Source: Saprospiraceae bacterium (GTDB lineage: Bacteria; Bacteroidota; Bacteroidia; Chitinophagales; Saprospiraceae). Taken from it: 64,000 bases of DNA. Below, piece by piece: positions 3,346-61,004 of this stretch. The notes under the pieces were generated by a model. It was not told the DNA's origin, searched no databases, and saw only the letters and a list, made by a program, of their open reading frames with translations. Position 1 is the first letter of the stretch; each line of letters opens with the position of its first letter. Location of the stretch: assembly GCA_019638455.1 (NCBI GenBank), contig JAHBTU010000005.1, forward strand, positions 277,054 through 341,053, written 5' to 3'. The position numbers and the translations under genes were made by a program.

Positions 3346-4338
3346 TTAACGTCCCTTAACAATTCTGAAAAGCCACTTCAACGGCCTGTTGCCTGCTTTC
3401 CAAACCTGATGATACGGCGCGAGTTGCGCCCCAAACGCGCGAAACCCGCGCTCTATTTCGTGCTCCATGCTGCCTTCAAAATCGAGGCTCAGCCCCCTTT
3501 CCGAGCAAAATTCCATCGCTTTCCAAAACAACGCCCACGCGGCGCAGGAAGACTTGAACGTCGGGTTGGCACCGGTGAGCAGCACCGCGGCGCGGCGCTC
3601 GTCGAAGGCAAGACAGAGGCCAGCGTGGGGCGCTCCCAAGTGTGGCACACCTTCGAGGTGTGCCACACTTTTGTTTTTGTCGCGGGCGATGAAAACAGCC
3701 GATTGACGGCGCTCCGCCAAAGCCGAACAGAGACATTGGAAAGTTTCAAACGAGTAGGGCGGGCGGCGGTTTTTTCGGAAAAAAGACATTTCGTGAAGTC
3801 GGAAAAGCAACTCTGCCGCGTCGTTTTCTTGGAAAATCTCGATGGCTTGCGCTGCTTTTTTCAAATCGGTGCGCAAGGTGTTTTTGAAACCCGCCTTTAT
3901 TTTTTCCAAATCAGATAAATCGTTGATGAGGTAGGTGTAGCGCGTCGTTTGCCGAAAACCCGCCCAATGGAACGGCAGCCAGTTTTGCACGTCGGGGTGA
4001 AAATTTTGCTGAAAAAACGCCGCGCGCGGTAGTTGGCGAATCAAGTCGTCAAGGACTTTTTTTTCAAAATCGAGGCGTTTGTGAGGTTTCAAATTTTGGG
4101 GGTAATTCAGCCAAGGGCCCGCGTAAGAAGTCAAGGGCGGCTGCTGAATCACCGAAAGGCCGAATCGCCGCGTTTTGTAGAAAGGCATTGCGCCCAAAAT
4201 CTTCCCGCCGCCGTCGGTCGCCAGGCAAACATCCCACTCGCCGTCGGCGCACACGGCATCGAGCCACCACGGCTGCATGGGCATGGGGACGTAGTGATTT
4301 TGACAAAATACGGCGTATCGGGCTTTGCGCTCGGACAT
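3346..4338 (-). CDS. FemAB-like / GNAT-superfamily acyltransferase (putative)
   Basis: ORF trimmed to MSERKARYAVF at 4338. It is about 330 aa, and its overall pattern resembles the Bacteroidota proteins usually annotated as FemAB-like GNAT. This is from memory only. Confidence 0.55.
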   Translation of the reverse strand: MSERKARYAVFCQNHYVPMPMQPWWLDAVCADGEWDVCLATDGGGKILGAMPFYKTRRFGLSVIQQPPLTSYAGPWLNYPQNLKPHKRLDFEKKVLDDLIRQLPRAAFFQQNFHPDVQNWLPFHWAGFRQTTRYTYLINDLSDLEKIKAGFKNTLRTDLKKAAQAIEIFQENDAAELLFRLHEMSFFRKNRRPPYSFETFQCLCSALAERRQSAVFIARDKNKSVAHLEGVPHLGAPHAGLCLAFDERRAAVLLTGANPTFKSSCAAWALFWKAMEFCSERGLSLDFEGSMEHEIERGFRAFGAQLAPYHQVWKAGNRPLKWLFRIVKGR

Positions 4339-10499: not shown

Positions 10500-10985
10500 A
10501 TGTCGAAGCAGGAACCTATAAAAGTGCCCAGGTTCGAGGAAGCAGCCGGGTTTTACACCACCGCGAAACAGTCCGGGCTGATGCGGAAAATTCGCGCCGC
10601 CAACTCCAAAGTGGAGGTCGCCGTCCGCAAGGTGCTTTGGCACTTTGGGTATCGCTATCGGCTGCACTACAAAAAAGTGCCGGGCAAGCCCGACATCGTT
10701 TTTGTGCGGTGGAAAATCGCCATTTTCATTGATGGAGACTTTTGGCACGGTTACGGCTGGGAAGAAAACAAAGATAAAATCAAGAAGAATCGCGGCTTTT
10801 GGGTGCCTAAAATCGAGCGCAACATGCAACGCGACGGAGAGGTGGATGCAGCCTTGCAAGCAATGGGCTGGAAGGTGCTCCGAATTTGGGAGCACGAGGT
10901 GAAAAAGGAATTTGGTGCCACCATCGTCAGGATAATGCGTTTCATCGAATATCACACGGGTGAGCCAGATGCTTTTCGGCTGTGA
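10500..10985 (+). CDS. vsr: very short patch repair endonuclease
   Basis: 161 aa. The pattern RKIRAANSKVEVAVRKVLWHFGYRYRLH...GKPDIVF...IAIFIDGDFWHG is typical of Vsr. Confidence 0.85.
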   Translation: MSKQEPIKVPRFEEAAGFYTTAKQSGLMRKIRAANSKVEVAVRKVLWHFGYRYRLHYKKVPGKPDIVFVRWKIAIFIDGDFWHGYGWEENKDKIKKNRGFWVPKIERNMQRDGEVDAALQAMGWKVLRIWEHEVKKEFGATIVRIMRFIEYHTGEPDAFRL

Positions 10986-11189: not shown

Positions 11190-11750
11190 ATGACACAGCA
11201 CCAACTCCTCGAACGACTCGATGCCGAATTGAAAAGGCTCATGGAAACAGTGCGTACCCAACTCGCACTCACCCCGCCCGAAGCATTGCAGGTGCGCCCA
11301 AGCCCTGAGAAATGGAACGCGCTGGAATGTTTCGCCCATCTCAACGCACAATTCGACTACTTCCTGCCACGCATCGAATTGGCCATTCACAAAGCCAAAG
11401 CCCGTTCGTGGTCGCCCGTGGAGGAGCGCAAGTCCAACGCGCTGGGGCGAAAAGCCATCCGTCGGGCCGACCCACTCAATATGGGCAAGATTCGCCGAAA
11501 AAGCCACAAACGCATCCATCCCAAGTATTTGGAAGTGCGGCAGCACGAAGTCAAAGCCTTCCTTATCAACTCTGAAATGTTGCTCCGCCTGCTCCAACAA
11601 GCCCGCGAGGTGGATTTGAACAAGGCGCGGGTCGTGCACTTCCGCTGGCCGCATTTCAAATTCTTGCTCGGCGACTTGCTCGAATACATGGTGCTGCACG
11701 CGCACCGACACACCTTGCAGGCACAGGCCGCCGCTCCCAAAATCGCTTGA
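11190..11750 (+). CDS. DinB-family (DinB_2-like) protein
   Basis: 186 aa. EKWNALECFAHL ... MVLHAHRH is the histidine-triad pattern of DinB-like four-helix bundles. Confidence 0.75.
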   Translation: MTQHQLLERLDAELKRLMETVRTQLALTPPEALQVRPSPEKWNALECFAHLNAQFDYFLPRIELAIHKAKARSWSPVEERKSNALGRKAIRRADPLNMGKIRRKSHKRIHPKYLEVRQHEVKAFLINSEMLLRLLQQAREVDLNKARVVHFRWPHFKFLLGDLLEYMVLHAHRHTLQAQAAAPKIA

Positions 11751-11839
11751 CGAAGGCATGGAATGACCGCTTTGGGCGCATGGGTAAAAAAAATCAACCC
11801 TACCATGCAGCCGCGCCACACCTCAACAGAGTACATTTG

Positions 11840-12015
11840 CCATCGCTACGGTGCCGATGTTCGAGTAACAGAGGATAATAGGGAACCCGGTGAGAATCCG
11901 GGGCAGTCCCCGCTGCTGTAAGCCTCACAGTTGTTTTTGGCATGAAGCCACTGCCGCGCTCAAAGCGAGGCGGGAAGGCGCCCAAAACGAGGCGAGCCAG
12001 AAGACCTGCCGTTGC
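11840..12015 (+). promoter_or_regulatory. cobalamin (B12) riboswitch
   Basis: It contains aatagggaacccggtgagaatccggggcagtccccgctgctgtaagc, gccactg, gggaaggcg and the B12 box agccagaagacctgcc. It lies directly upstream of a TonB-dependent receptor. Confidence 0.85.
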
Positions 12016-12128
12016 GACATACACATTCGGGCTTTCGGAGGAAAAGCCGGGTGATGATGCGATGTGCACAATGTGCCAATCGAAGGCGGGCATTCCACAC
12101 AAACGAATGCCCCCCGTCAAATTGGCGC

Positions 12129-14159
12129 ATGAAAGCTCCTCCCATTGCTGCCCGTCTTCTCCGTCGAAGACCCTCCATCTTAAAATCGGGCAGCGTGCAT
12201 CGGATATTCCACACCATCTCGCGTTTTTCAATTCGCAGCAAAACAGCCGCCGGCAATTTTTGCCTCCTCGCGCTCTGTGGGTTTGGGGCCAACCTCAACG
12301 GACTGCACGCGCAGGCCGATACCTTGCTCGCGCTGCCCTCCCCCGAAATCACCGCCCAGCACTTGCGCCGCCAACCCGCCGGAGCACAATCAACCACCCT
12401 CGATAGCACCTGCCTTGCCCTCCACCAAACTGAAAACGTGGCTGACGCGCTTTGGAAAAAAAGCGGGATGTATGTGAAAAGTTACGGCTTGGGCAGCTTG
12501 GCCACCACCTCTGCCCGGGGCGGCAGCGCGGGTCAAACTGCCATTGTTTGGAACGGTCTTCCGCTGCAAAGCCCCATGCTCGGCCAATTGGATTTTTCGC
12601 TATTGCCCCTTGTTTTCGTGGACGAAATGACCCTGCAATATGGCGGCAACAGCGCGGGTTGGGGCAGCGGAGCGATTGGTGGAGCCGTGCTGCTCGAAAA
12701 CAAATCACAGTTCATCACAGGCCTTTCCGCCCGCCTCAACGTGGCTGCGGGCAGTTTTGGTTGGCAGCACCACGCCACCACCCTTCGCTACGGCAATGGC
12801 CGCTGGGCTGGCTCCACGCGCATTTTTTTTGAAAAAGCCAACAACGATTTCACTTTTCAAATTCACCCCGACTTGCCGGAGACAAAACAAGAACACGCCG
12901 CTTTGCAGCAACAGGGCGTGTTGCAGGAATTTTTTTTGAAAACAAGGCCCAACGAAGAATTTGCCCTCCGGGTTTGGCTCCAAGACATTGCCCGCCAAAT
13001 CCCCCCGACCATCGTGCAAAACCGAAGCCAAGCCACACAAGCCGATGCCCTGCTCCGCACCACTTTGCACTGGAAAAAAACAAGCGGGCTGCTGACGTTG
13101 CAAACGCGGGCTGCCTTTTTCACCGAGACGCTGGACTACCGCGACCCGCTCATAGGACAAGCGTCGCTCAGCAAATTCCACACTTGGATGGGTGAAGCAG
13201 AGGCGACGCGATGGCTGGGGAGACAATCGAGGTTGCAAGGCTCCGTCATGCAGACCTACACCCGCGCTTCCACCCCCGCCTACGAAGCCTCGCCCCGCCA
13301 AACCCGCACCGCTGTCTTTCTCGCCATGCGGCGGGAAGGCCATCGTTGGCAAGCACAATTGGACGGGCGCATGGAATGGGTGGATGGCCGCTGGGTGCCC
13401 TTCACGCCCAGCGTGGGCGCAGAAGCCGAGGCGCTGCGTTTTTTAGAAATCAAGGGAAAAATCGCTCGCAACTACCGCTTGCCCACTTTCAACGACCTCT
13501 ACTGGCGCCCCGGCGGCAACCCCGAACTGCTGCCCGAAAGCGGTTGGAGCCAAGACGTGGGGTTGGTCTTCCACGGAAAAGCCAAGCAGTTGCGATGGTC
13601 TTATTCTGCCACAGGATTCCATCGCCGCATCCGCAACTGGCTCCTTTGGGCGCGTAAGGACGGTCAATTCTTTTTTTCGCCGCAAAACATCGCCGAAGTG
13701 TGGAGCCGAGGCATCGAGAGCCGCCTCGATGTGGCGAGCGCGTTTTCTTTTGGCGAAATAATCTTGACCGGGGGCCACGATTGGGTGCGCTCCACCAATG
13801 AATTGGCTGTGAGCAATCCGCGCATTGAGCAAGGGGCACAGTTGTTCTATGTGCCGACGCACCGTGTTTTTGCGGAGGTCTCCGTTCGGGTCAAACATTT
13901 CCAAATCACGGGTTTCCAACAATTTACTGAAAAAGTAACAGGCATCAACGAGGACGTGCCTAGTTTCAGCATTGGCAGCCTGCGCATACAGTACGCCCGC
14001 CCTTTTGGCGACTGGAACGGAGCCATTTTTCTGCACATAGAAAATTTGTGGGACGCGGATTACCAAGTCATCGAACGCCGCCCCATGCCGGGGCGACATT
14101 TCCGATTGGGCTTCAACGCGGGTTTCTCGACCCGCAAACACACCAATTCTTCATCATAA
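12129..14159 (+). CDS. TonB-dependent receptor, BtuB-like (B12-riboswitch controlled)
   Basis: The plug region is VADALWKKSGMYVKSYGLGSLATTSARGGSAGQTAIVWNGLPLQSP and the barrel ends in GFNAGF. The start is uncertain: the ORF opens at 12012 inside the riboswitch, so I used the ATG at 12129. Confidence 0.8.
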   Translation: MKAPPIAARLLRRRPSILKSGSVHRIFHTISRFSIRSKTAAGNFCLLALCGFGANLNGLHAQADTLLALPSPEITAQHLRRQPAGAQSTTLDSTCLALHQTENVADALWKKSGMYVKSYGLGSLATTSARGGSAGQTAIVWNGLPLQSPMLGQLDFSLLPLVFVDEMTLQYGGNSAGWGSGAIGGAVLLENKSQFITGLSARLNVAAGSFGWQHHATTLRYGNGRWAGSTRIFFEKANNDFTFQIHPDLPETKQEHAALQQQGVLQEFFLKTRPNEEFALRVWLQDIARQIPPTIVQNRSQATQADALLRTTLHWKKTSGLLTLQTRAAFFTETLDYRDPLIGQASLSKFHTWMGEAEATRWLGRQSRLQGSVMQTYTRASTPAYEASPRQTRTAVFLAMRREGHRWQAQLDGRMEWVDGRWVPFTPSVGAEAEALRFLEIKGKIARNYRLPTFNDLYWRPGGNPELLPESGWSQDVGLVFHGKAKQLRWSYSATGFHRRIRNWLLWARKDGQFFFSPQNIAEVWSRGIESRLDVASAFSFGEIILTGGHDWVRSTNELAVSNPRIEQGAQLFYVPTHRVFAEVSVRVKHFQITGFQQFTEKVTGINEDVPSFSIGSLRIQYARPFGDWNGAIFLHIENLWDADYQVIERRPMPGRHFRLGFNAGFSTRKHTNSSS

Positions 14160-14170
14160 AATTCAAACAA

Positions 14171-15142
14171 ATGCAACACCTTTTGACTTCTGTCGCACTA
14201 TTGCTGGCCTTCGGCGCACACGCGCAAACAGTGGCCAACTTTGAAAATTTCAACCTCCCGCCCAATACTTTTGTCAACAATGCCGGAGCGGCGGGCGCGT
14301 TCACCAGCGCCGATATCGAGTTGCCCAACAATTACAATGCGCAGTGGATGAGCTGGGACGGTTGGGCGATTTCCAACCGAACGGACGATACGACTCCGGG
14401 CTTTCTCAACGAATCGAGTGCCGCTGCGGGCAAAGGAGCCAACGGCTCTGCCACCTACGCGGTCAGCTATGTCTTCGGTGCCTCCATCATGCGGCTGACA
14501 GGCGCGACAGCAGGCGGGAAAGTGCTCGGCTTGTACGTCACGAACAACACCTACGCCTATTTCAGCATGAAGGACGGCGATGCTTTCGCCAAAAAATTCG
14601 GCGGTATCACGGGCAACGACCCCGATTTCTTCCTGCTCACGGTGAAAAAATACCTCAACGGCCAACTTGGCACCGACAGCGTCAATTTTTATCTGGCCGA
14701 CTACCGCTTCGCCAACAATGCGCAGGACTACATCGTGAAAGATTGGGCCTGGCTCGACCTCAGCAGTCTGGGCAACGCCGATAGCCTGCAATTCACGCTT
14801 ACATCCAGCGATGTGGGTGCCTTTGGCATGAACACGCCCGCCTACTTCTGCGTGGATGATGTGACGACGGAGGATGTGCTTTCGCAGGACGATGTTGTTT
14901 TGAATGCCCTGTCGTTCGATGTCTTTCCCAACCCGACCAGTGATTTTTTGAACGTCCGCTTGGCGGAAGATGCTGATAACGCCATTGTCCAAATCTTCGA
15001 TTTGCAAGGGAAATTAGTGTCTGAAAAAACGATTTCTGGCCCTCAGCCTCGTCTCGACACACGCCCGTTGCCAGCGGGTGCTTACTTCATTCGGGTAGGG
15101 CAAGGTGGCAAAATTGGCGTGGGGAAATTCATCAAGGAATGA
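14171..15142 (+). CDS. DUF4465-like protein with T9SS type A C-terminal sorting domain
   Basis: Trimmed to MQHLLTSVALLLAFGAHAQ, a signal peptide. FENFNL...WDGWAISNRTD...ATYAVSY...YVTNNTYAYFSMKDGDAFAKKF matches DUF4465 as I recall it. The C-terminus FDVFPNPTSDFLNV...YFIRV is a T9SS CTD. Confidence 0.7.
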   Translation: MQHLLTSVALLLAFGAHAQTVANFENFNLPPNTFVNNAGAAGAFTSADIELPNNYNAQWMSWDGWAISNRTDDTTPGFLNESSAAAGKGANGSATYAVSYVFGASIMRLTGATAGGKVLGLYVTNNTYAYFSMKDGDAFAKKFGGITGNDPDFFLLTVKKYLNGQLGTDSVNFYLADYRFANNAQDYIVKDWAWLDLSSLGNADSLQFTLTSSDVGAFGMNTPAYFCVDDVTTEDVLSQDDVVLNALSFDVFPNPTSDFLNVRLAEDADNAIVQIFDLQGKLVSEKTISGPQPRLDTRPLPAGAYFIRVGQGGKIGVGKFIKE

Positions 15143-15176
15143 TTAGGTGTGGCATGGCCGCTCATGCCACACCTAA
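15143..15176 (+). terminator. perfect 14-bp-stem hairpin after the B12 operon
   Basis: ttaggtgtggcatg - gccgct - catgccacacctaa, starting 1 nt after the stop at 15142. Confidence 0.6.
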
Positions 15177-15256
15177 TCAATGAGGTTTGGCGGGTTTCAG
15201 GTTTGCGTACATTTGCCCCGCGAACCCGTCAAACCGAAATCCGTCAGCCTCACAAC

Positions 15257-56797: not shown

Positions 56798-57499
56798 ATG
56801 AACGATGACCTGACTGCCTACTACGACCGACGCGCCACCGAGTACGAGGCTATCTACGCCAAACCCGAGCGGCAGGCCGATTTGCTGGCCGCGACGCAAG
56901 CGCTGCAAGCCATTTTTAAAGAAAAAGAAGTCTTGGAAATCGCCTGTGGAACAGGATATTGGACAGAAAAAATCGCCCAGACCGCTCGCTCCATCAAGGC
57001 AACGGACATCAACGAGAGCGTCTTGGAGATTGCCCGACACAAGCGGTATCCAAACCAAAATGTCGCCTTTGAGGTCGCCGACCTCTATCAACTAAACCCG
57101 CTCAGACCCTCGGAAGCCCTGTTTGGAGGGTTTTTGTGGTCGCACATTCCGTTGCAAGCGTTGCCCAAGTTCATTCAAAAAACAAACGAATTGGTTGCGG
57201 CAGGCGGCACGGTCGTGATGATGGACAACCGCTACGTCGAAGGCAGCAGCACCCCCATTTTCAGCCGCGACGAAATGGGGAACACCTGCCAGCGACGACA
57301 ATTGCAAAATGGCGAGACCTACCTTGTTTTGAAAAATTTCCCCAATCAAACCGATCTTGAAAACGCCCTTCAAGGGAAATGCTCGACACTGCAATACATT
57401 CAATTTCAGTATTTTTGGATAGCGGTCTGGCAAACAAACACCCACACTACTGGACCTTGTTTTTGTGCTGCAAAGACACAAAATGCGGCAAATCAATGA
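56798..57499 (+). CDS. class I SAM-dependent methyltransferase (C-terminal about 18 codons and stop supplied by a MITE)
   Basis: Trimmed to MNDDLTAYYDRRATEYE. VLEIACGTGYWT is motif I. The reading frame runs into Rep2 copy 3 at 57443 and stops inside it. Confidence 0.8.
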   Translation: MNDDLTAYYDRRATEYEAIYAKPERQADLLAATQALQAIFKEKEVLEIACGTGYWTEKIAQTARSIKATDINESVLEIARHKRYPNQNVAFEVADLYQLNPLRPSEALFGGFLWSHIPLQALPKFIQKTNELVAAGGTVVMMDNRYVEGSSTPIFSRDEMGNTCQRRQLQNGETYLVLKNFPNQTDLENALQGKCSTLQYIQFQYFWIAVWQTNTHTTGPCFCAAKTQNAANQ

Positions 57500-57557
57500 G
57501 TATTTTGCTTTGCGTCTTTGTGACTTCGTGGCAAATTTGAAAATGTCCAGCAGTGTG
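57443..57557 (-). mobile_element. Rep2 MITE, copy 3 (inverted)
   Basis: cacactactggacctt ... aaatgtccagcagtgtg. The interior is the reverse complement of copy 1. It lies between the methyltransferase and trpCF, 20 nt before the trpCF ATG. Confidence 0.85.
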
Positions 57558-57577: not shown

Positions 57578-59056
57578 ATGAGTATTTTAGAACAAATAGT
57601 CGAGTCCAAAAAGCGCGAAATCGAGCGGTTGCACGCGCAGCACGACATGCGCGAGCTGCAAGAGCGGGTGGCTCAAAATCATCCGAACGCTCCGCCGCGT
57701 TTCTACCAAGCCTTCGCCGAAACCCGCGCACGGGGCGAGCATTTTTTCATCGCCGAATTCAAGCGCAAAAGCCCCTCCGAAGGCTGGCTCGACCACGACG
57801 CGAACTTGCCCCTCCAAGTGCGTGCCTACGCCCAAGCAGGCGCGAGCGCCATTTCTATCCTGACCGATGAGCCGTTTTTTGGCGGCTCCTACGCCGATTT
57901 GACATTAGCCGCCCAAACCCTCCACCTTCTACCTTCTTCCACCCTCCATCCTCCACCTTTATTGTTGCAAAAAGACTTTATCCTCAGCCCCATCCAAATC
58001 TATCTGGCCAAGCTGCACGGAGCGGACATCATCCTGCTCATCGCGGCCATTTTGGAGCCGGAACGATTGGATTTTTTGAAAAAAACAGCCGAATTACTGG
58101 GTATGGGTGTGCTGGTAGAGGTACACGACGAGGCAGAACTGGCAAAAATCCAGCACCTTGATTTTCCGGTCTTGGGGGTGAACAACCGCGATTTAAAAAC
58201 CTTTCGCACGGCACTCAACCGGGTCAATGTGTTGAAAAAACAGGCGGGCGGAAGATTCGTCGTCGCCGAATCCGGCATCCGCGACTACCGCGATTTTCAG
58301 GCCGTTCGCCACGCCGATGGCTTTTTAATTGGGACGGGACTGATGCGAGCAGAAAAATTGCCGACTCGATTTGAAGCTCATTTCCAAGGCCGAGGGAAGT
58401 TTCTTTTCAAAGCCTGTGGCATCCGAACGCCGGAAATGCTGACTGCTCTTAGTGACGGGTTGACCTCGAGTCAACCCGTCACTAAAAACTCCCCCGACTT
58501 CATCGGCCTCAATTTTTCCCCCGTAAGCCGCCGCCGGGTGGACGCCGAAACCTGTGAGGTTTTGAAAACCTCACAGGTTTCCAACGCGGTGGCTGTTTTT
58601 TACAAAAACACCGAAACCGACATCCGCAAGACACACGAAAAATACCCCTTCCATGCCGTCCAGTTGTATGCCCACGAGGTGTCGCCGGAGTTCGTGCGCA
58701 GCCTGAAACAGCGAGTCATGCTCGCCATGTCAGTACGCGAAACGGCTGATATGCAGCAACTTGAACCTTTCGCCGCCGACGTTGATTTTTTTATCCTCGA
58801 CGGTGCCACGCCGGGCAGCGGGCAGCGCGTTGGCGCAGCGATTCCAGCTGATTTTCCTTATCCGTTTTTACTGGCAGGCGGCCTCAACGAGGAAAATCTG
58901 GAAGTCATTTTGGACTATGAAAATTGCATCGGCGCGGACATCGCATCGGGCATTGAAACAGATGGGCAGGTGGATGTGGGGAAAATACACAGAATTGCGG
59001 AGCGGCTGGCAGATTTGAAAGAAATTGTTGAAAAAAAATTTTATTTGGCAAAATAG
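57578..59056 (+). CDS. trpCF: fused indole-3-glycerol-phosphate synthase / phosphoribosylanthranilate isomerase
   Basis: The TrpC half has [17 protein letters not shown] and VEVHDEAE. The TrpF half has [15 protein letters not shown] and [10 protein letters not shown]. Confidence 0.9.
58451..58483. repeat. perfect 14-bp-arm palindrome, in frame within trpF
   Basis: agtgacgggttgac - ctcga - gtcaacccgtcact. It is 33 nt, exactly 11 codons ([11 protein letters not shown]), and starts on a codon boundary. Confidence 0.95.
58547..58581. repeat. perfect 17-bp-arm palindrome, in frame within trpF
   Basis: gaaacctgtgaggtttt - g - aaaacctcacaggtttc. It is 35 nt, starts on a codon boundary, and encodes [12 protein letters not shown]. 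Confidence 0.95.
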
Positions 59057-59192
59057 CACCTACCTTTGCCCCAACATTTACCAAACCCGGTACTTGTCCG
59101 CCCTGGACAACAAGTCTTTTCCACAAAGACTTCACCCCATGAAGGCTCGCCTAAGGCTGGCCACCGCGTACGATTCCGGTCAACTTTATTTC

Positions 59193-61004
59193 ATGTTATT
59201 CAAAGATTTATCGCTCATTGAGCCGCTTCTTCGCGCGCTCGAAACCGAGGGCTACGAACGCCCCACGCCTATTCAGGAACAAGCCATTCCCCCCGTCCTT
59301 CAGCGCCACGACCTACTTGGCTGCGCCCAAACAGGGACGGGCAAAACCGCCGCTTTCGCCCTGCCGATTCTTCAGATTCTGCACGCTGAACGTACTGCCG
59401 CAGGCCAACGCGAAGGCAAACGCCCCATCCGTACCCTCATCCTTACACCCACCCGCGAACTCGCCATTCAAATCGGCGAAAGCTTCACCGCTTATGGCCG
59501 CAACGCTGGGGTGCGCAACCTCGTCATTTTCGGAGGCGTGGGCCAAACGCCCCAAACCGACGCGCTCAAACGCGGCACCGATGTCCTCATCGCCACACCG
59601 GGCCGTCTGCTCGACCTGATGAACCAAGGCTACGTCTCCCTGCGCGACATCGGCATTTTTGTGCTTGACGAGGCCGACCGAATGCTCGATATGGGTTTCA
59701 TCCACGACGTGAAAAAGGTCATCGCCAAACTGCCGACCGAACGCCAGACGCTTTTCTTCTCCGCCACCATGCCGCCCGAAATCGCGCATCTGGCTGATTC
59801 GATTCTGAAAAATCCGGTGAAAGTAGCAGTCACCCCCATTGCCTCCACCGCCGAAAAGGTAGCGCAGAAGATATTTTTTGTGGACAAAAAAGACAAAAAA
59901 TCGCTGCTTATCCACCTGCTAAAAGACAAAACCATCACCTCCGCGCTCGTCTTTTCGCGCACCAAACACGGCGCGAACAAAATCGCGGGTGACCTCACCA
60001 AAGCGGGCATCCGCGCCGAAGCCATTCACGGCAACAAGTCGCAGAACGCCCGTCAAGCCGCGTTGGGCAATTTCAAATCAGGCCGACTACGCGTATTGGT
60101 CGCCACCGACATTGCCGCACGCGGCATTGACATCGAGGAACTTTCGCACGTCATCAATTTTGATTTGCCCAACATCCCAGAGACCTACGTCCACCGCATC
60201 GGTCGCACGGGCCGTGCGGGTGCGAGTGGCATTGCACTCTCTTTTTGCGACGCTGAGGAAGTGGCATACCTGAAAGATATTCAAAAACTGACGGGCCAGC
60301 TCGTACCGGTGGAACGTGACCATCCTTTTGCCGCCGACCTCGCCGCGCCGGGCTTGCCAGAGCCGCGAGGCGGGAAAGATGCTGTTGGCAGGGATGCCAA
60401 CAACGGCAAGAAGAGCGGCAGAAGGCAGCCCGCTCAAGTCACCAAGACACCCGTGCCACAACGTCCCGGTACGATACCCTTGCCCGAACGCAAACCAGAC
60501 ACCCAACGCCAAGAGCGAACCGGACGCCCCGCGCAAGGAGTTGTTGGCAGGGATGCCAACAACGGCAGGGACGGCAGGGATGCCAACAATGGCAGGCAAG
60601 GCAGGGATGCCGATAACAGCAGGGCAGAAGGTGTTGTTGGCAGGGATAACAACAGAAACAGGAACGATAACGGCAGGAGCGCCAACAACGGCAGAAACAA
60701 TGACCGCCGCGACGACAATAGGCGCAATGAACAACGCCGCGAACAATCTCAAGGCTCGCGCCGCGACGACCGCCCTGCTCGCCGCGACGACCGCGACCGC
60801 TCGCAACAGAAACCAGCCGCCAAAGAAGTGGCAAGCGTCATGCGCAATCGTTTTGCTTCCATACTGGAAGTCGCAAGCATCGAAAAACAGGCCCGACCGC
60901 CCAAGCCGAAGCCAAACTATCGGGACCGCGACGACCGCAATCAGGACAACAAAACGGGTGACAACCGCCCACCCTTCAAAGGCGACAAGAAGAAGCGTTG
61001 GTAA
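59193..61004 (+). CDS. DEAD-box ATP-dependent RNA helicase (RhlE-like) with long Arg/Asp/Asn-rich C-terminal tail
   Basis: Trimmed to [16 protein letters not shown]. It has [29 protein letters not shown] and [10 protein letters not shown]. The tail is built of GRDANNG-type repeats. Confidence 0.9.
60379..60660 (+). repeat. palindrome-containing short repeats inside the helicase tail
   Basis: tgttggca-ggga-tgccaaca (60382-60401), gttgttggca-ggga-tgccaacaac (60540-60563, 10-bp perfect stem), and gttgtt...aacaac near 60633-60653. The ggcagggatgccaacaa units are repeated. Confidence 0.85.

Follow-up and report, generated by a model that had tools for sequence, protein, structure and literature searches.

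The stretch analysed here, a window of 64,000 nucleotides (nt) from an activated-sludge Saprospiraceae bacterium (contig JAHBTU010000005.1), carries on its plus strand an open reading frame (ORF) at 57578-59056 that encodes a protein of 492 amino acids (aa). Since Pfam places IGPS at residues 4-261 and PRAI at residues 301-475, this ORF is a trpC-trpF fusion (trpCF). An AlphaFold model of the protein (34 homologues) has two (beta/alpha)8 barrels and a mean predicted local distance difference test score (pLDDT) of 87.9, and the named homologues belong to Saprospiraceae/Lewinellaceae of Bacteroidota. Two real palindromes, P1 and P2, lie in frame within trpCF, and the probable relic of another is found near the TrpC N-terminus. 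Orthologous and other loci are referred to by L numbers.

57578..59056, plus strand: trpC-trpF fusion gene, host of both palindromes (ORF call, Pfam, AlphaFold model)
58449..58485, plus strand: P1, perfect palindrome ttagtgacgggttgac-ctcga-gtcaacccgtcactaa (arms 58449-58464 and 58470-58485, read from the sequence)
58547..58581, plus strand: P2, perfect palindrome gaaacctgtgaggtttt-g-aaaacctcacaggtttc (arms 58547-58563 and 58565-58581, read from the sequence)
57659..57691, plus strand: site A, close to the N-terminal end of TrpC, where a P1-type 33-nt palindrome has probably decayed (from alignment to L087)

P1 has 16-nt arms and a 5-nt loop, and its 33-nt core (58451-58483) makes 11 codons in a 15+3+15 register. 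An earlier inspection of the DNA letters, called the sequence-only reading below, had described this palindrome with its 11-codon core, which is borne out, although the arms measure 16 nt and not 14 nt as given there. P2, described there as an in-frame palindrome with 17-nt arms, was found again at 58547-58581; it has a 1-nt centre, and its first base falls on a codon boundary. The spacing from the end of the P1 core (58483) to P2 is 63 nt instead of the 64 nt claimed. Two 15-nt mini-hairpin units, AAACCT-GTG-AGGTTT and AAACCT-CAC-AGGTTT, make up the P2 doublet. The frame actually read is the single coding-strand frame without a stop, in P1 as well as in P2. In the case of P1, it is the sole open frame of either strand, and every genic P1-type copy consequently reads S-[DEQ]-x-x-T...T.

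As the sequence-only reading had estimated, such palindromes are rare by chance. The window has four perfect palindromes with arms of at least 12 nt and loops of at most 6 nt, three of them with arms of at least 16 nt, while no palindrome with arms of at least 12 nt and loops of at most 6 nt arose in first-order Markov simulations (n=60). The sequence-only reading had also asked for a check that the palindromes are not assembly artefacts. Such an artefact of assembly or sequencing, for instance from a chimeric fold-back read or faulty polishing, is extremely improbable. All that speaks for it is that fold-back artefacts in general tend to produce palindromes. Contigs of four independent activated-sludge or bioreactor metagenome runs from different studies (X1, X2, X3 and X5; 95-99% alike) contain both palindromes with strain substitutions and without indels, so that the palindromes are not assembly artefacts. 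In addition, the P1 and P2 positions are palindromic in over a dozen orthologues taken from other assemblies, and the reading frame is intact.

In the AlphaFold model, residues 291-301, which P1 encodes, cover the last part of TrpF helix alpha1 (285-292) and the coil after it, with pLDDT below 50 at residues 296-299 and strand beta2 next at 308-312. TrpF of the window has 10-13 residues more between alpha1 and beta2 than T. maritima TrpF and the outgroup orthologues, from which P1 is absent. The surface loop between alpha1 and beta2 therefore contains a true insertion, P1, as the proposal of a lineage-specific in-frame insertion had it, and the low-confidence loop in the model agrees. The P2 peptide (residues 324-335) is modelled as helix alpha2 (323-331) and the turn preceding beta3. 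The P2 site has zero net length change relative to outgroups and T. maritima, and the outgroups have a loosely similar helix motif, xETLxxLKxxPVF, at this place. P2 is therefore not an added loop, and the same proposal fails for it, since no length is gained and the palindrome encodes barrel helix alpha2.

As RNA, P1 is predicted to form a hairpin of -27.8 kcal/mol (z-score -8.9) and P2 one of -25.2 kcal/mol (z-score -8.3); the antisense strand of P1 folds better than the sense strand. The bases 3' of the stems are aaaaactcc for P1 and ccaacgcgg for P2. An intrinsic terminator or attenuator was considered and rejected, because neither stem is followed by a U-tract and neither P1 nor P2 was called in a terminator scan. 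A known RNA family was likewise rejected: the Rfam search gave no family at threshold for either hairpin, only sub-threshold look-alikes of microRNA hairpins. The metatranscriptome run X13, from a sample containing the organism, gave no contig on trpCF.

Orthologous sites and paired changes

Orthologous DNA was available from 14 members of the subclade at 60-80% protein identity, including L001 and L090, and a scan of genome contigs gave no relative above 62% identity. Many of the 14 orthologues have perfect or near-perfect palindromes at both sites, with sequences differing from those of the window.

P1 site, L083: tagtgatggggtgact-cga-...
P1 site, L086: tagtcaggcggtgact-caa-...
P1 site, L173: agtgggggtgcgactt-t-...
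P1 site, L001: gtggtcagacgact-tgg-...
P2 site, L089: aaacctgcgaggtttt-t-...
P2 site, L001: agacctccgaggtttt-a-...
P2 site, L170: tgggcagacctcggaggtttt-t-... (21-nt arms)
P2 site, L085: aaacctgtgcggt...
P2 site, L087 and L171: aaaccttacag...

Both hairpins persist in orthologues down to about 60% protein identity through paired changes. At P1, 93% of the cells are paired, seven of the 15 pairs are changed on both sides and one-sided variation occurs in none; the covariation score of 0.319 (0.087 in shuffles) was reached by none of 500 shuffles. At P2, changes on both sides affect eight of the 17 pairs, with a score of 0.288 against 0.118 in shuffles (0 of 500). The P2 covariation is concentrated in three central pairs that are formed by the long hairpin only. 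An alternative folding of P2 into two separate small hairpins was rejected, as its scores are much lower and the covariation lies in the central pairs exclusive to the long hairpin. The conservation of both sites with paired changes is seen directly in the orthologous DNA. Neither palindrome is present in the outgroups L002, L003, L005, L014 and others, and outgroup DNA at the P2 site has a mini-palindrome of 5 base pairs (bp) at most. In a tree of 110 homologues, both features co-occur in two of the three subclades of a 71-member clade, and many members of this clade have degraded palindromes.

Double transversions, e.g. G-C to T-A, are among the paired changes. Spacers are found reverse-complemented between relatives at P1 (TCG versus CGA, and CCA versus TGG in two L001 copies), and the centre base of P2 is flipped between C and G in L081 and L082 and between T and A in L089 and L090. 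Mismatches on the sense strand are 8 A.C versus 9 G.U in P2 and 6 A.C versus 1 G.U in P1, and none of the P1 pairs varies by way of wobble pairing. Despite the strong covariation, the signature of a structured RNA, namely wobble intermediates and strand-specific tolerance of G.U, was not found.

Among the strains, the window alone has a perfect P2. In X1, X2, X3 and X5, one to three changes break pairs in it (58559, 58561, 58569, 58579), and they are derived relative to the closest orthologues, L081-L083. In this strain comparison, the palindromes have a substitution density no lower than that of the 451 nt around them. At the P1 pair 58460/58474, relatives have G-C, X3 and X5 have a G.A mismatch, and the window shares T-A with X1 and X2. 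This series is a compensatory transversion caught in progress, and it stands as the one compensation beside the decay seen at the strain level. P1 is longer in X1 and X2 (18+3+18), via T at 58448 and 58465. Decay is also found between lineages: L173 has a decayed P2, L088 a decayed P1 and the window a decayed copy at site A. The trpCF gene is intact in lineages with one hairpin lost or degraded.

Site A (caa gag cgg gtg gct caa aat cat ccg aac gct in the window) can be aligned codon by codon to agtgaccgggtgact-caa-agtcacccggtcact, the perfect palindrome of L087 at this site, and 7 of its 15 pairs survive, which makes it a probable relic of a P1-type palindrome on alignment grounds. In different lineages, site A bears three different 33-nt families, with gene length unchanged. 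These swaps, together with the placement of P2 over native sequence, suggest replacement or conversion, not plain insertion. One of the site-A palindromes, of the SESCKLSES type, has no counterpart in the viral-contig scan described below. Across orthologues, trpCF palindromes occupy five sites (aa ~26, ~256, ~291, ~324 and ~399).

Dispersed 33-nt families and a candidate transposase

Most of the palindromes found are exactly 33 nt long, with the layout 15+3+15 or 16+1+16. A collection of viral contigs scanned for the P2 apex gave 43 loci. The P2-type element, A[AG]ACCT-NNN-AGGTTTT-N-AAAACCT-N'N'N'-AGGT[CT]T, occurs at 43 places in the fetched DNA with sharp 33-nt boundaries and unrelated flanks. 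The 43 aligned copies begin with A[AG]ACC and end with GGT[CT]T, whereas P1-type copies begin with AGTGA or ATTSA. No terminal tag GTAG or CGTC is conserved adjoining the 43 aligned P2-type copies, and membership in the GTAG/CGTC super-families of repetitive extragenic palindromic (REP) sequences is thereby ruled out. A GTAG-tagged REP-type palindrome, gtagagacgcgatt|aatcgcgtctctac, is present at 10944-10971 of the viral contig L193, where it is read as SRDAINRVS; since L193 also bears P2-type copies, tagged and untagged palindrome types occur on one contig.

Sequence comparison places P2 of the window in this family, as a doublet that has GTG/CAC triplets and belongs to the AAACCT...AGGTTT subfamily. 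Among the dispersed copies, the central triplets repeatedly pair as CCG/CGG or GCG/CGC, and the CAC/GTG form is found in L036. At the trpF P2 site, the triplet pairs are GTG/CAC in the window, GCG/CGC in L089, CCG/CGG in L001 and CGG/CCG in L170. The trpF copy of L001 is identical at 33 of 33 positions to L208:7621 and others, and that of L089 at 31 of 33 to copies in L193 and L200. L210, a phage contig with genes for portal, S49-type protease, decoration and major capsid proteins, has seven P2-type copies in 10.9 kb, several of which are intergenic and one of which is in frame at the portal C-terminus. L195 has six P2-type copies and L036 three. P1-type 33-mers beyond the P1 site are found at site A in trpC of L087 and in the viral contigs L181, L183 and L185, and copies with a related core at L170:18324 and L008:12101. 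In the window itself, P1 and P2 have no second copy, each being present once. The GenBank phage and plasmid collections gave no 28-nt exact match to a P2-type 33-mer, and a text search of a literature library for these sequences found no paper describing them.

The three P2-type copies of L036, the trp operon of a Flavobacteriaceae metagenome-assembled genome (TamC13-05), are of the CAC/GTG form and, with half-units, flank a gene encoding a 183-aa protein. At 11436-13562 of this locus, the order is trpF, a P2-type palindrome with half-units, the gene for the 183-aa protein, which is a Y1 transposase resembling REP-associated tyrosine transposases (RAYT), a palindrome, trpB, a palindrome and trpA. 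The 183-aa protein matches Pfam Y1_Tnp (PF01797) with 38.1 bits (cut-off 23), and its top NCBIfam match is REP_Tyr_transpos (E = 7e-18), whose 64.9 bits are below the curated cut-off of 80. Its homologues, mostly from Flavobacteriaceae, bear the JGI name 'REP element-mobilizing transposase RayT'. Judged from its sequence, the arrangement resembles a REPtron, and the protein is a candidate RAYT partner of the palindromes.

Origin and maintenance of the palindromes

P1 and P2 are probably copies of two 33-nt palindromic repeat families of the REP or mini-REPIN kind, which joined the trpCF reading frame in the ancestor of a Saprospiraceae subclade and would have been inherited since this entry. 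Their spread is likely to have involved single-stranded DNA folded into a hairpin, the form that serves as substrate for HUH/RAYT-type transposases. They might have been tolerated because their one stop-free coding-strand frame gives small, hydrophilic, Ser/Thr-rich peptides, and because these peptides would be exposed to solvent, that of P1 in the alpha1-beta2 loop and that of P2 on the outer helix alpha2. After fixation, the arms would evolve in concert: a change in one arm would spread to the opposite arm or disappear, with an occasional flip of the spacer, so that the palindrome would stay perfect while its sequence drifts. The likeliest cause of this concert would be replication template switching within the hairpin, and conversion from other copies of the family is an alternative cause. 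A trpF-specific regulatory role is not needed. RAYT-mediated origin in the Saprospiraceae lineage, homogenisation by template switching and neutrality are what we infer from these comparisons.

Several points weigh against this explanation. No RAYT was found by tblastn and a purpose-built hidden Markov model in the window or any Saprospiraceae locus (~420 kb of flanks), and the RAYT link comes from one Flavobacteriaceae locus only, with its NCBIfam score under the cut-off. Neither a second copy of P1 or P2 nor a further P2-type copy was found in the window and the ~420 kb of Saprospiraceae flanks. A simple insertion fails to explain P2, which adds no length and whose peptide resembles the native helix of outgroups; P2 might instead have arisen by replacement, by conversion, or on the spot from a quasi-palindrome. 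Perfect arms lasting to about 60% protein identity could also be caused by selection. Finally, a hotspot of five sites in trpCF is unpredicted by a purely neutral model: this gene holds 20 of the 42 perfect palindromes (arms of at least 11 nt) in 448 kb, ~17-fold the flank density, in a count where orthologous copies are not independent.

The hairpins might instead be selected structures of the trpCF transcript or gene, acting for instance as ribosome or RNA-polymerase pause sites that help the two-domain protein to fold, in RNase processing or stability, or in factor binding, with the paired changes reflecting purifying selection. This is rather doubtful. In its favour, both hairpins occur at the same sites with strong covariation in orthologues as distant as ~60% protein identity, and their predicted stability is high (-25 to -33 kcal/mol, z-scores -7 to -11). 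Palindromes are also dense at the five trpCF sites across the clade, and one compensatory transversion is found within a population 96-97% alike. However, G.U is not favoured over A.C on the sense strand and variation of the P1 pairs does not go through wobble, close strains have derived pair-breaking changes in P2 with substitution density no lower than around, and several lineages have lost or degraded a hairpin with the gene intact. Identical elements are also found in phage contigs and other genes, and neither a U-tract nor an Rfam family is associated with the stems. The trpF-specific RNA signal for pausing or processing that the sequence-only reading had suggested finds no support on the same grounds, from the missing U-tract, terminator call, Rfam family and G.U bias to the pairs broken in close strains and the presence of elements of this kind in unrelated places, including phage contigs. 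Given the lack of G.U bias, the strain-level pair breaks and the lineage decay, the palindromes are better explained as REP-like elements that are tolerated and undergo arm homogenisation at the DNA level than as selected mRNA hairpins.

Unlikely, too, is an on-the-spot origin that involves no mobile element, in which template switching would perfect a native quasi-palindromic coding sequence (GAAACC...GGTTTC) that the helix motif E-T-x-x-V-L-K-T-x-x-V-S imposes. Dispersed look-alikes would in that case be unrelated, or even be derived from genic sequences of this kind. P2 and the site-A palindromes replace sequence of native length, and an ETLxxLK-like helix motif is common to the outgroups, as such an origin would have it. 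Published work documents that template switching makes short inverted repeats perfect and conserves them (PMC5941160, PMC8604942), and coding palindromes with both arms encoding conserved protein are known (PMC6649704). On the other hand, convergence would not be expected to give the 33/33 and 31/33 identity of trpF and phage-contig copies, which also share sharp 33-nt limits and the subfamilies CCG/CGG, GCG/CGC and GTG/CAC. P1 is a net gain of 10-13 codons, the P1-type 33-mer is found at two different trpCF sites in different lineages, and outgroup DNA has no more than a 5-bp mini-palindrome at the P2 site. A further, tentative possibility, also unlikely on balance, is that trpCF is a hotspot of fixed-site cassettes, at which 33-nt families (P1-type, P2-type and SESCKLSES) swap in frame and replace native helix-coding sequence. 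If this is true, coding DNA would be rewritten in situ, and exposed protein segments diversified, by a hairpin-targeted replacement process, which could be RAYT-like or draw on dispersed copies through template-switch conversion.

Neighbouring repeats, known systems and meaning

Other repeats were noticed in trpCF and around it. At 57917-57959 (TrpC residues ~114-127), the gene has a hypervariable in-frame insert of 7-nt repeats (CTCCACC / TTCTACC / CTCCATC ...). The arrays at this place are longer in orthologues, as in L087, (CCACCGT/CCACCCT/CTACCCT)n, and in L088, where they form a hairpin, (GGTGGAC)n...(GTCCACC)n, and P0007 and P0011 have a heptamer-encoded GGRWTVDG-type peptide at another trpC site. 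Between the methyltransferase gene and trpCF, ~115 nt at 57442-57557 have a summed depth of 140-350x in two sludge metagenomes against 3-6x in the flanks, and the X8 contig skips 57433-57558, an empty site. The segment is a high-copy mobile element resembling miniature inverted-repeat transposable elements. Just upstream of trpG/trpGD, L087 (2534-2608) and L171 (2622-2699) have perfect palindromes with 36- and 38-nt arms (aatgaatttgttagcgggt.ctgaaataaa...), located between a divergent LysE gene and the trp genes and conserved between the two loci with paired differences; these could be an operon-level regulatory or terminator structure.

Elsewhere in the window, a perfect 33-nt palindrome of 15+3+15, aagtgtggcacacct-tcg-aggtgtgccacactt, lies at 3638-3670 and is open in all six frames. 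It is in frame (KSVAHLEGVPHLG) within a 362-aa minus-strand ORF with an Acetyltransf_6 (GNAT) domain, and the viral contigs have no copy of this type. A perfect palindrome with 17-nt arms, tgattaggtgtggcatg-gccgct-catgccacacctaatca, at 15140-15179 has its first base on the TGA stop of ORF 14048-15142; it has the core GTGTGGCA in common with the palindrome at 3638-3670 and is without a T-run. The C-terminal tail of a DEAD-box helicase ORF (59025-61004) is of low complexity at ~60400-60800, with GRDANNG-like units and, on the opposite strand, AGMPTTAG repeats, and looks like another translated short-repeat array.

The likeness of both palindromes to in-frame translated dispersed palindromic repeats, which the sequence-only reading had pointed out for Rickettsia palindromic elements (RPEs), is upheld and extends to intragenic REPs. 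RPEs are ~100-150 bp in size and add 30-50 residues to a protein. The segments that they encode are said by Ogata et al. to lie in protein surface loops. To our knowledge, RPEs occur in Rickettsia only, and we know of no transposase linked to them. P1 and P2 share with RPEs that they are in-frame palindromic repeats in genes still functional, P1 being placed in a surface loop, and they differ in their 33-nt size, in their presence in Bacteroidota (Saprospiraceae) and in that P2 overlays native secondary structure. RPEs are palindromic and inserted in frame into ORFs that likely stay functional (PMC3733652).

With REPs and REPINs, the trpCF palindromes have in common a short (20-40 nt) palindromic hairpin unit (33-37 nt for P1 and 33-35 nt for P2), P2-type units paired in inverted orientation to give a longer hairpin, copies that flank a Y1_Tnp/RAYT-like gene in L036, copies between the phage genes of L210, and occasional copies within ORFs that are translated as 11 to ~30 extra residues. 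REPs within genes of several species, including the GTAG/CGTC super-families, have been surveyed (Di Nocera et al., 2013; PMC3733652). In contrast, the trpCF-type elements have no GTAG or CGTC tag, their stems are perfect and not imperfect, the unit is just 15-16 nt and the doublet exactly 33 nt. The Saprospiraceae DNA examined (window and ~420 kb of flanks) also differs from a typical REP setting in having neither a RAYT nor further copies, and the trpF copies are old, orthologous and co-evolving, P2 encoding a core helix and not an added loop.

Perfect short inverted repeats are conserved at orthologous sites beyond expectation (Lavi et al., 2018; PMC5941160), and spacer inversion with arm homogenisation is a published hallmark of inverted-repeat template switching, known also from coding inverted repeats of yeast (PMC8604942). 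The palindromes of trpCF resemble these in the correction of imperfect arms, arm homogenisation, spacer inversion and multinucleotide changes, including those in coding DNA. The published repeats are single-copy ones of Proteobacteria and yeast, whereas P1 and P2 also belong to dispersed families and would undergo switching by analogy. In mitochondrial genes of Nematomorpha, coding palindromes reach 284 bp with both arms coding (Mikhailov et al., 2019; PMC6649704). They represent a compromise between protein and hairpin, as do P2 and helix alpha2, but they are mitochondrial and have neither a dispersed-repeat family nor a link to a transposase. Some likeness also exists to the cyanobacterial SDR and HIP1 elements, which are of another phylum, sequence and length and are likened here by description only. 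These are reportedly (Elhai et al. 2008) palindromic dispersed units of ~21-27 nt that also occur inside genes.

Reading the two perfect hairpins in this tryptophan-synthesis gene as translated REP-like repeats guards against over-reading them as a regulatory device. P2 offers a natural example of a hairpin that remains perfect to about 60% protein identity while encoding a barrel helix, and it is useful for separating DNA-level arm homogenisation from selection on RNA structure. Annotators who meet peptides like xTSEVxKTSEV or SDxVTxSHPVT in a Bacteroidota protein should take them as repeat-derived. Collectively, Bacteroidota and their phages appear to have a 33-nt palindromic repeat family that is new to the literature and for which a RAYT is a candidate partner, and (beta/alpha)8 enzymes can absorb such elements.

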